Origin: a virus
Virus record (IMG/VR): IMGVR_UViG_3300025154_000065
Location: 1-64,000 of that record
DNA: 64,000 bases
Reading direction: 5' to 3' (one strand)
The translations under genes and the position numbers were made by a program. The notes under the pieces were generated by a model. That model was not told the DNA's origin. It ran no database searches and worked only from the letters and a program-made list of their open reading frames with translations. Below, piece after piece: positions 33,355 through 34,520 of this stretch; the first letter of the stretch is position 1; every line of letters starts with the position of its first letter.

Positions 33355-33494
33355 TTAGGGTAAGTTATTTGAGGCATTCATTTGTAAAGTCTGATTATGA
33401 GTCAGATGCGTTTACCAATTCCGCCGTATAGTCCGAAGACTACAGAAGGACTCGAACCTTCAATTTTGCATGTATCCTCAAAAAGTAACCCTAA
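33355..33494 (-). ncRNA. Y-RNA-like RNA A: module plus circularly permuted tRNA (CAU loop)
   Basis: Order is T arm, acceptor closed by UUCG, D arm, anticodon arm, all inside a long terminal stem. Confidence 0.82.
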
Positions 33495-33500
33495 ATTGAA

Positions 33501-33573
33501 AAATGGGATAAATCAAAAAGGCTTTATTGTTTTCTCCGATGATAACATGTATGCCTTCTTAGTAATCCCATTT
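33501..33573 (-). ncRNA. Y-RNA-like RNA B: module only
   Basis: AAAUGGGAU UACU AAGAAGGC AUACAUG ... GCCUUUUU GAUUU AUCCCAUUU. Confidence 0.72.
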
Positions 33574-33579
33574 GTTTAC

Positions 33580-33685
33580 TGGTGGGGAATGTTGTTCCAT
33601 TGCAATTTTAGATCCTAAATCTAACGCATGTATGATTACTTTGTGCCATTTCTGGAAGTCAAATAACCTTTTAATGGCATTCCCC
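33580..33685 (-). ncRNA. Y-RNA-like RNA C: acceptor stem+CCA, permuted module, anticodon-like hairpin (UAG)
   Basis: GGGGAAU/AUUCCCC-A-CCA; GGUUAUUU GACUU CCA-GAAA-UGG CACA AAGUAAUC AUACAUGC; UUAGA-UUUAGGA-UCUAA. Confidence 0.7.
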
Positions 33686-33695
33686 ATAAATAAAT

Positions 33696-34277
33696 CTATC
33701 TTGATTTCTTATTAATTTTTAGAGGAATCGAAGATAGAGTTGAAGCCAAATATTCGTTTTTTCTTACTATATCAATTGGCAAATTCTTTGAAATCTGTAT
33801 ATAGTAATCAGAATCAAGCCAATTAGTATATTCCATTCTTCCTCTAGTTTTATTACATTTTTTACATGCAGTCAAGAGATTTTCTTCTATGCTTGGACCA
33901 CCATTTTCCCATAAAATTAAATGATCAACCGTTAGAGGAATTCCTGTTTTATTACAATATCTACATGAATAATGATCCCGTTGAAAAACTCTCCAGCTTA
34001 CAAATTGGTCAATTTGTCTTTCGCATTTCCTTACAATAGTTTTTATAAATTGACCATCATTTTGGGAGAATACTTCTGTTTTCAATGTATCTGTTTGACG
34101 AAAGAATTTCTTCCAATCTTCTAAATTCATATTTAAGTATATTTCGTTATGCAAATCTTCTACATAATCTGGAAGATAACAATAATAATCTTTTTCATTT
34201 CCAGATATAATAATTCCTGATATTTGGATGGTATTTCCAAGATCATAAATTTCAATATCATCAAGAGTTATTTCCAT
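33696..34277 (-). CDS. HNH endonuclease within the RNA array
   Basis: RDHYSCRYC...TVDH...NLLTACKKCN; uncharacterised N-terminal ~85 aa. Confidence 0.85.
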   Translation of the reverse strand: MEITLDDIEIYDLGNTIQISGIIISGNEKDYYCYLPDYVEDLHNEIYLNMNLEDWKKFFRQTDTLKTEVFSQNDGQFIKTIVRKCERQIDQFVSWRVFQRDHYSCRYCNKTGIPLTVDHLILWENGGPSIEENLLTACKKCNKTRGRMEYTNWLDSDYYIQISKNLPIDIVRKNEYLASTLSSIPLKINKKSR

Positions 34278-34294
34278 ATTCTTCCTTTAAAAGA

Positions 34295-34387
34295 TGGCGG
34301 GGGAGGGTGGGGCGAACCACCGTTTGCATGTAAGATTTTACAATTAGCTTTTTAGCAAGTCTGAAAACCTTTCATCAATTCTCCCCC
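34295..34387 (-). ncRNA. Y-RNA-like RNA D: acceptor stem + T arm + CCA with permuted module
   Basis: GGGGGAG/CUCCCCC-G-CCA; GGUGG-UUCGCC-CCACC; GGUUUUCA GACUU GCU-AAAA-AGC UAAU UGUAAAAUC UUACAUGC. Confidence 0.72.
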
Positions 34388-34395
34388 ATAAAAGA

Positions 34396-34520
34396 TGGGT
34401 TGTAAATCTGCTGTACTATTTAGGTTACGCTCGTGGGAATCGAACCCACAACACTCGGCTTTCAAGGCTGATGCTCTACCAATTGAGCTAAAGCATGTAA
34501 GCACAGCAAGTAACAACCCA
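34396..34520 (-). ncRNA. Y-RNA-like RNA E: module extending the acceptor end of a normally ordered tRNA body (UGA loop)
   Basis: UGGGUUGU UACU UGCUGUGC UUACAUGC [D, anticodon, T arms] ... GUACAGCA GAUUU ACAACCCA; no CCA end. Confidence 0.8.

Follow-up and report, generated by a model that had tools for sequence, protein, structure and literature searches.

The DNA analysed here, called the window throughout, is the stretch of 64,000 nucleotides at positions 1–64,000 of the IMG/VR virus record IMGVR_UViG_3300025154_000065, a record of 86,771 bases in total that is 66% complete. On its minus strand lies a 1.4-kb array of tRNAs and tRNA-like RNAs, followed on the same strand by a gene for a 491-amino-acid protein with the predicted fold of Ro60. 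We focus on two RNAs of this array, C and D, located 345 nt and 1060 nt upstream of that gene, respectively. Both end in an encoded CCA and hold, within a partial tRNA frame, a capped two-helix module whose strand order is the reverse of that in three neighbouring RNAs. Ro60 and Y RNAs are conserved from bacteria to humans.

As judged from structure prediction, the 491-amino-acid product is a Ro60-fold protein consisting of a helical-repeat ring and a C-terminal vWA domain. The AlphaFold2 model, derived from 42 homologues, had a predicted local distance difference test score of 86.1, and the top 12 listed rows of a full-length Foldseek search (ranks 1–13; 5.9e-12 to 6.1e-08) were all Ro60/TROVE. 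The best VIA-align superposition on Ro60 covered 437 residues at Z 21.2 and a root-mean-square deviation of 4.3 Å. Overall, Ro60 structures aligned over 412–440 residues at Z 17.4–21.2, and chains with only a vWA domain reached Z 13.3. Among the top fold matches was the Ro60 of Thermus phage phiLo (PDB 9KOP, 9L5Y). Sequence-based searches with the same protein recovered little: Pfam returned only VWA_CoxE at 16.7 bits, below its cut-off, and no TROVE match, a PDB sequence search gave no match at E ≤ 1, NCBIfam gave no match, and PHROGs returned phrog_850 'RNA-binding protein' (3e-8). The protein family comprises at least 678 proteins at E ≤ 1e-3 among 8000 candidates scored.

Structure of RNAs C and D

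Scanning the array for 7-bp stems followed by NCCA returned exactly two matches, D and C, with the same coordinates as in an initial annotation made from the sequence alone. That annotation had described RNA ends forming a 7-bp acceptor stem with discriminator and encoded CCA, and all seven pairs are indeed Watson-Crick in each RNA, with ends reading G-CCA in D and A-CCA in C. A CCA is also encoded in the tRNA-Pro and tRNA-Leu of the window. In this AT-rich DNA, stems of this type are common by themselves (79 in the whole window vs about 46 in shuffled sequences), so that the significance of C and D rests on the covariance models, covariation and synteny described below rather than on the stems.

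Between the acceptor strands, C and D share one order of elements: helix a (8 bp), GACUU, a 3-bp helix b closed by a tetraloop, a return strand, the 3' strand of helix a and (A)UACAUGC. Helix b and its cap read CCA-GAAA-UGG in C and GCU-AAAA-AGC in D, and the return strands are CAC-A and UAA, respectively. In D, the acceptor strand is followed by a 9-nt linker, the 5' strand of helix a, CA, GACUU, the capped helix b, UAA, UUGU and the 3' strand of helix a; the remainder consists of ACAUGC, AAAC, a T stem (GGUGG/CCACC), the acceptor 3' strand, G and CCA. The corresponding 5' part of C contains the acceptor strand, GCCAUU, AAAA, helix a, GACUU, the capped helix b, CAC-A, the 3' strand of helix a and AUACAUGC, and its 3' part a hairpin with a 5-bp stem and a 7-nt loop, AAUUGC, AAUGGA, ACAAC, the acceptor 3' strand, A and CCA.

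Neither RNA is a complete cloverleaf, C being without D and T arms and D without D and anticodon arms. The hairpin of C is anticodon-like as had been claimed, with a loop (UUUAGGA) that has U at position 33 and a purine at position 37. The reported absence of a T arm from C also holds, and in its place, where a T stem would stack, stands a 5-bp extension helix (CCAUU/AAUGG) separated from the acceptor by a 5–6-nt bulge. For D, the loss of the D and anticodon arms and the presence of a T-type arm with a 5-bp stem were borne out, although its loop has 6 nt (UUCGCC) instead of 7 and no A at the position of A58, so that the U54-A58 pair of a T loop is missing. No tRNA was assigned to C or D by ARAGORN or by the Rfam tRNA model at E ≤ 10. 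At the gathering threshold, Rfam recognized only three tRNAs in the window and no family for C or D; overlaps with the models of a Tetrahymena snoRNA (E 4.4) and of a human lncRNA (E 2.1) were at chance level.

All helices of C and D pair in the element table. Pair probabilities were 0.83–1.0 for the acceptor stems, helix a and helix b (0.97–1.0 for the acceptor pairs), and folding z-scores were -3.3 for C (2 of 200 shuffles as stable) and -4.0 for D (0 of 200). An alternative GCCAUU/AAUGGC pairing in C, feared in the initial annotation as a threat to the module, has a probability of 0.04 and costs 3.2 kcal/mol. A possible pairing of UACAUG with an upstream AUG was rejected, being true of D only and showing no conservation.

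The module itself, composed of helix b, an internal loop of GACUU opposite YAC, the 8-bp helix a and UACAUG, is common to five RNAs of the array, and five copies of UACAUG are found on the array strand within about 1 kb (33469–34499), one per RNA. Three of these RNAs are open. They start with the 3' strand of helix b, UAC, U, the 8-nt 3' strand of helix a and (A/U)UACAUG, continue with a variable body, and end with the 8-nt 5' strand of helix a, GAUUU or AACUU, and the 5' strand of helix b. Helix b thus forms the termini of the open RNAs, whereas in C and D it is closed by 4 nt, the elements are circularly shifted and the RNA ends form the acceptor stem instead. The earlier description of a reversed module, GACUU strand first and outer helix capped by a tetraloop, is therefore literally correct within this array, since the three other RNAs hold the module in the opposite strand order. 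One of them encloses a circularly permuted tRNA-like body made up of a T arm, an acceptor hairpin closed by UUCG, a D arm and a CAU anticodon arm, with a partial Rfam tRNA match at 33424–33390 (24 bits). An internal GACUUUAC of this RNA was considered as a module strand and rejected, as the real module strands lie at its termini. Coordinates are collected in Table 1.

Table 1. Features of the array and Ro60-like gene in the window, and relatives with a G:U pair at 3:70
Feature	Position	Strand	Basis or remark
RNA E	34519–34397	minus	open (unpermuted) module around tRNA-shaped body; helix a 8 bp, helix b 7 bp, both pair
tRNA-Ser(UGA) assignment of RNA E body	34497–34423	minus	ARAGORN and Rfam
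RNA D	34387–34295	minus	93 nt; stem and NCCA scan, element table
D acceptor 5' strand	34387–34381	minus	
D acceptor 3' strand	34305–34299	minus	
D discriminator G	34298	minus	
D CCA	34297–34295	minus	
D capped module	34371–34326	minus	
D helix b hairpin	34356–34347	minus	
D UACAUG	34332–34327	minus	
D T-type arm	34321–34306	minus	5-bp stem, 6-nt loop
HNH endonuclease open reading frame	34277–33696	minus	193 amino acids, between D and C; Pfam HNH 1.3e-10
RNA C	33685–33580	minus	106 nt; stem and NCCA scan, element table
C acceptor 5' strand	33685–33679	minus	
C acceptor 3' strand	33590–33584	minus	
C discriminator A	33583	minus	
C CCA	33582–33580	minus	
C extension helix	33677–33673 with 33601–33597	minus	
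C bulge	33596–33591	minus	
C capped module	33668–33626	minus	
C helix b hairpin	33655–33646	minus	
C UACAUG	33632–33627	minus	
C anticodon-like hairpin	33624–33608	minus	
Minimal open-module RNA	33569–33505	minus	65 nt, no tRNA part; element table; folding z -4.5
Open-module RNA enclosing circularly permuted tRNA-like body	33491–33358	minus	element table
tRNA-Pro(UGG)	33339–33263	minus	encoded CCA; last RNA before Ro60-like gene; ARAGORN, Rfam
Ro60-like protein gene	33235–31760	minus	491 amino acids; fold comparison
111-amino-acid open reading frame	31788–31453	minus	overlaps Ro60 stop codon
Terminator-like hairpin	31433–31409	minus	after 111-amino-acid open reading frame
Relatives with G3:U70 and A73	L035:2637–2755, L047:2376–2492, L040:2516–2636, L032:2443–2560, L021:2300–2413, L045:2691–2804, L058:2983–3079		loci encoding Ro60 homologues

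Related RNAs at other Ro60 loci

Alignment-based scans yielded 110 loci encoding homologues of the Ro60-like protein (78 viral and 32 metagenomic, numbered with the prefix L); a single-protein query had returned no related loci in viral or metagenome contigs. A blastn search of GenBank phages with the array matched at tRNA-Pro only and found no array relative. Upstream of the homologues, a plain scan for G/C-containing 7-bp stems with NCCA that hold ACAUG revealed many non-tRNA RNAs of 95–130 nt. The folded relatives follow one plan: acceptor, linker or D arm, then the capped module and UACAUG, followed in most cases by an anticodon-like arm and, again in most, by a T arm, and finally acceptor, N and CCA.

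A whole-RNA covariance model (R1) built from 23 seeds, C and D among them, found further members and was rebuilt as R2 from 29 sequences, none of them from the window. R2 gave its highest score, in the window and in the whole record alike, to C (38.5 bits, E 7e-7), followed by D (34.8 bits, E 5e-6); the next-best match reached 24.3 bits. That match (15833–15659) consists of coding sequence and tRNA-Leu and was treated as chance; the window's own tRNAs scored only 20.9–24.3 bits. A module-only model (R3; 26 seeds, no window sequences, filters off) placed the module of C second (21.4 bits, E 0.019) and that of D third (15.9 bits, E 0.25) of 13 matches in the window. The top match (33524–33468, 24.5 bits) is a junction between two units, combining the 3' strand of the minimal RNA with the 5' strand of the open RNA after it, so that neighbouring units could pair across the spacer in a precursor. 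Across 98 loci, R3 recovered 25 of its 26 seeds, and all 30 matches were on the strand of the Ro60 gene (Ro strand). By the whole-RNA model combined with a 7/7 acceptor, about 18 distinct loci other than the window have CCA-ended members, and 30 of 37 distinct hit sequences have 7/7 acceptor pairs. Several D-like matches in close relatives (for example L089:810–923 and 970–1085, L109:510–614, L085:2112–2210) were artefacts in which the 3' half of an open unit had been combined with the 5' half of the following one, and were excluded from the count.

The initial annotation had proposed covariation in homologues as a check on its structures, and compensatory change was found both across the family and in a close ortholog of C. 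Among the 29 non-window members, 87.3% of cells pair, compared with 58.0% after shuffling (0 of 500 shuffles reached the observed value) and 37–49% when slid. By element, pairing was 92.6% for helix b, 99.3% for the T stem and 95.6% for the acceptor, and 25 of the 27 pairs vary on both sides. In a MAFFT alignment of 26 non-window modules that was not fitted to the structure, 76.8% paired vs 51.1%, and the covariation score of these modules was 0.643 vs 0.211 shuffled (0/500). The ortholog of C was found in the phage of locus L085, whose Ro60 is 60% identical to that of the window, with the same sequence in L071 and L106 and a near copy in L109. It keeps 26 of 28 pairs and breaks 2, and 12 pairs are changed on both sides (acceptor 3, extension 1, helix a 3, helix b 2, hairpin 3). 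The nearest analogue of the D design, with acceptor, module, T-type arm and no anticodon arm, is L058:2983–3079.

Association of the module with Ro60 genes was assessed in the 83 distinct loci with at least 600 nt of upstream sequence. Within 1.5 kb upstream, UACAUG occurs 252 times on the Ro strand vs 41 times on the other, with 30 expected from composition, and at least one copy is found there in 72 of the 83 loci. The Ro gene and downstream DNA (210 kb) hold 33 and 30 copies on the two strands. To separate the two forms, a strict rule of 7/7 helix-a pairs plus the loop motif was applied; it sorts the window correctly into three open and two capped RNAs. The module is thus the element that accompanies this Ro60 family, and the most likely candidate for its docking site.

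CCA is encoded in 24 of the 29 well-formed members. Of the discriminators, 16 are A, 7 are G and 6 are U, and the base before G1 is U in 17 members. In addition, near-identical 8-nt spacers, UAAGUUGU before G1 and UAAGAUGA after CCA, separate many of the members in six loci (L021, L032, L038, L040, L041, L047), which suggests a conserved processing context in those arrays. In open-form relatives, the loop closing the acceptor starts with N-CCA in 31 hairpins on the Ro strand, distributed over 28 of the 83 loci, vs 18 on the other strand; 18 of the 31 come directly after a T-type arm, three of them being one sequence. Examples are found in L089 (913–939, 1075–1097), L085 (2064–2089) and L098 (1391–1414). 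By analogy with the YrlA RNA of Mycobacterium smegmatis, N-CCA loops after a T arm look like a built-in site for RNase P and CCA processing. Since the open-form design matches that RNA, the family appears to arrive at a free NCCA acceptor end in two ways, either through processing or through the order of elements in the gene.

A G:U pair at 3:70 together with A73 is the alanine acceptor identity, used by tRNA-Ala and by transfer-messenger RNA (tmRNA). C and D have G3-C70, and no recognizable charging identity set was found in either. In contrast, seven distinct CCA-ended relatives (Table 1) place G:U exactly at 3:70 and carry A73 while positions 6 and 7 covary, and among members with 7/7 acceptors no G:U pair occurs at positions 1, 2, 4 or 5.

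Proposed function, alternatives and known Ro60 partner RNAs

We consider it probable that C and D, built in the chain order of a tRNA, are partner RNAs of Ro60, with the capped module docking the protein, host tRNA enzymes defining the ends and the free CCA end offered as a handle to a tRNA-binding factor. They would then be analogues of Y RNAs whose conserved module docks on the Ro60-like protein. As the genes lie within a one-strand run of tRNAs and tRNA-like RNAs, we infer that C and D are transcribed together with neighbouring array RNAs, cut by RNase P at G1 and, in the manner of tRNAs, trimmed to or kept at CCA, which would then be displayed. The 12-bp stack of acceptor and T stem in D, and the acceptor with its extension helix in C, would mimic the minihelix read by RNase P and 3'-end enzymes. 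The product would be bound to Ro60 and would present a free CCA end, like that of a tRNA, to a host factor that binds tRNAs. The functional suggestion of the initial annotation, of possibly chargeable RNAs or of CCA-end decoys tethered to Ro, is favoured indirectly by the Ro60 fold of the neighbouring protein, by the tracking of that protein family by the module, by the CCA encoded in most family members and by the seven relatives with G3:U70 and A73.

The same ends could instead matter for nothing beyond processing and stability: the handle RNA would be freed by host RNase P and 3' exonucleases and its 3' end protected, with neither effector nor charging. We regard this as rather unlikely, even though C and D have tRNAs as neighbours on the same strand, at short distances and often with U at position -1, retain only the acceptor-side minihelix that processing enzymes need, and have a precedent in the exonuclease protection that Chen et al. 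(2014, PMC4201824) raise as a role for the CCA on M. smegmatis YrlA. Other family members, however, retain full D, anticodon and T arms around the module, the hairpin of the C ortholog (5-bp stem, 7-nt loop) is preserved through three compensatory changes, and the seven relatives hold G3:U70 and A73 while neighbouring pairs covary; processing alone would have no need of either feature, which disfavours such a limited role. It is distinctly improbable that C and D are segments of one long structured precursor in which units pair alternatively and the apparent termini never form. The junction of two open RNAs as top module-only match would fit such a precursor, as would the cross-unit artefacts among whole-RNA matches in tandem arrays such as L089 and a promoter scan between the array units that found 13 sites vs 17.2 expected, nothing above chance. 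Yet helix b is closed by only 4 nt, the acceptor strands enclose the whole unit in both RNAs and pair with the high probabilities given above, and the HNH gene, with its ribosome-binding site, begins directly after D.

Decaying tRNA genes carrying an inserted mobile or duplicated module, and lacking a function of their own, are a highly improbable explanation. Some features would suit decay: each RNA is without some tRNA arms, the T loop of D is defective, an HNH gene lies between D and C, and the distribution among close relatives is patchy. Decay is nevertheless hard to reconcile with perfect 7-bp acceptors and encoded CCA, with family-wide covariation, or with a C ortholog that shows 12 compensatory changes and only 2 of 28 pairs broken at 60% Ro60 identity. 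Finally, it is barely credible that C and D are working tRNAs from which the module is removed like an intron. In some relatives the module does stand between the D arm and the anticodon arm of an otherwise complete cloverleaf, but its removal from C or D leaves no tRNA (C would have no T arm, D neither D nor anticodon arm), ARAGORN and the Rfam tRNA model leave both unassigned, and the insert is invariant in UACAUG and tracks Ro60.

Several observations weigh against our preferred reading of C and D as Ro60 partner RNAs with a functional CCA end. The module contains no published Ro60-binding motif, both GNCGAAN0-1G and CGAA being absent from C and D, and its docking on the Ro60-like protein is drawn from synteny only. 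Under the strict rule, capped forms are a minority (24 of 83 loci, open forms 52 of 83), and 147 of 271 motifs are left unclassified. D is the weaker case: its module-only E of 0.25 is weak, a D ortholog was not found in the closest clade, and ordinary tRNAs of other loci score 34.5–35.0 bits under R2, at the level of D, because R2 includes tRNA features. Across the 98 loci, R3 added only 5 matches beyond its seeds. The short T loop of D without A58 and the missing T arm of C point in the same direction, as do the five of 29 members that have UCA (2), CCU (2) or AUC (1) in place of CCA. Neither a CCA-adding enzyme (PF01743) nor RtcB (PF01139) was found in the record, which is weak evidence given that the record is only 66% complete, and no RNA run was found that contains this stretch of the window.

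Known bacterial Y RNAs offer the closest comparison. YrlA RNAs have been presented as circularly permuted mimics of tRNA in which the acceptor is closed and which 'lack a free CCA end' (Wang et al. 2018, 10.1101/312249); they carry the motif GNCGAAN0-1G (Chen et al. 2014, PMC4201824). As in those accounts, the RNAs studied here are small, lie just upstream of the Ro60 gene on the same strand, several per locus, and are modular, combining a (here predicted) protein-docking stem with a tRNA-like part. The chain order is different: in the YrlA RNAs so described the RNA ends form the Ro60-binding stem and the acceptor is a closed loop, whereas in C and D the module is closed and the acceptor with its CCA is open. 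Instead of GNCGAAN0-1G or CGAA, the conserved elements of C and D are UACAUG and the GACUU/YAC loop. No Rfam Y-RNA or YrlA match was obtained on C or D at E ≤ 10, a Deinococcus_Y_RNA match (E 8.8) falling on RNA E, and the Ro60 of this locus, unlike that of the YrlA system, is unrecognized by Pfam.

A free CCA end has been reported for the YrlA of M. smegmatis, in which, according to PMC4201824, RNase P cuts the acceptor loop and the RNA carries CCA while bound to Rsr. C and D would resemble this processed form in being Ro60-bound RNAs with a 7-bp acceptor stem and free CCA end, their binding being predicted. There, cutting of the closed loop leaves two pieces of about 82 and 65 nt to which CA is added post-transcriptionally, whereas C and D are single chains with encoded CCA. 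Similarly, Thermus phage phiLo has its own Ro60 with upstream RNAs, Yrl1 and Yrl2, which differ from C and D in that their 5'-3' stem, as described in PMC12135203, flanks a bulge carrying CGAA; in that text the term 'CCA' was not found and 'tRNA' occurred only twice. In red algae and an archaeon, circularly permuted tRNA genes (cited in 10.1101/312249) likewise have one helix set in different circular orders, although their precursors are re-joined into normal tRNAs, and here both orders seem to be end products with a non-tRNA module. We found no description of capped or CCA-ended Y RNAs in the full-text literature, a search whose scope left aside the supplementary tables of PMC4201824 (phage YrlA candidates). 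The chain order of C and D, with the handle inside a CCA-ended tRNA frame, would thus be a variant of YrlA-type Y RNAs that we have not found described for Ro60 partner RNAs.

The tRNA-like domain of tmRNA has an acceptor stem, a T arm and CCA, no anticodon arm and a large insert between. D shares the acceptor, T-type arm and CCA without an anticodon arm, and likewise has an insert in between. Unlike tmRNA, C and D are 93–106 nt long, have no tag reading frame (nor room for one) and no pseudoknots, and carry G3-C70; ARAGORN found no tmRNA in the window.

In the published view, as far as the sources covered here go, Y RNAs that mimic tRNAs have no free CCA end, with one processed exception in M. 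smegmatis. That a phage family encodes a free CCA end and has a second route to it, through NCCA in closed acceptor loops, suggests that this end matters to the working of the particle. It would also mean that a large Ro60 branch, invisible to Pfam, possesses a docking module of its own that is missing from current RNA catalogues. A bolder proposal, which we think unlikely, is that at least some of these RNAs do accept amino acids. Those relatives that have G3:U70 and A73 would be charged with alanine, and the Ro60 particle would carry a tRNA mimic that is charged or can be charged. In this way Ro60 could be brought to the translation machinery; alternatively, the particle could be a protected decoy, during infection, for host enzymes whose targets are the acceptor ends or anticodon loops of tRNAs.

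Neighbouring genes and other units of the array

Other parts of the locus recur with the Ro60 gene. By tblastn, 31 of the 110 loci contain homologues of the HNH open reading frame, and several of these loci have the homologue immediately after the RNA array and before the Ro60 start (L047:2991–3512, L054:2951–3472, L066:2953–3450). The best, sub-threshold NCBIfam match of the window's HNH protein is the HNH part of IscB. Contigs from four DNA runs were identical over C and D where they cover them and contained no joint skipping the HNH gene. The HNH endonuclease may be part of the system and not a homing insert acquired at random. The 111-amino-acid open reading frame has tblastn homologues in 61 of the 110 loci, downstream of Ro60 in the rows inspected, and no Pfam, PHROG or NCBIfam match; it is likely a second protein of the particle.

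RNA E, assigned as tRNA-Ser(UGA), has a short variable region and CCU in place of CCA, and its acceptor 5' strand overlaps UACAUG. The open module clamps its body, which is likely to be not an ordinary tRNA but a mimic or an RNA in two pieces. Elsewhere in the family, units in three loci (L082:3101–3266, L003:2453–2558, L104:2567–2701) place the module directly 5' of a complete tRNA, with UACA or UACAU ending exactly at the first base of the tRNA. RNase P cutting at such boundaries would free the handle and the tRNA separately.

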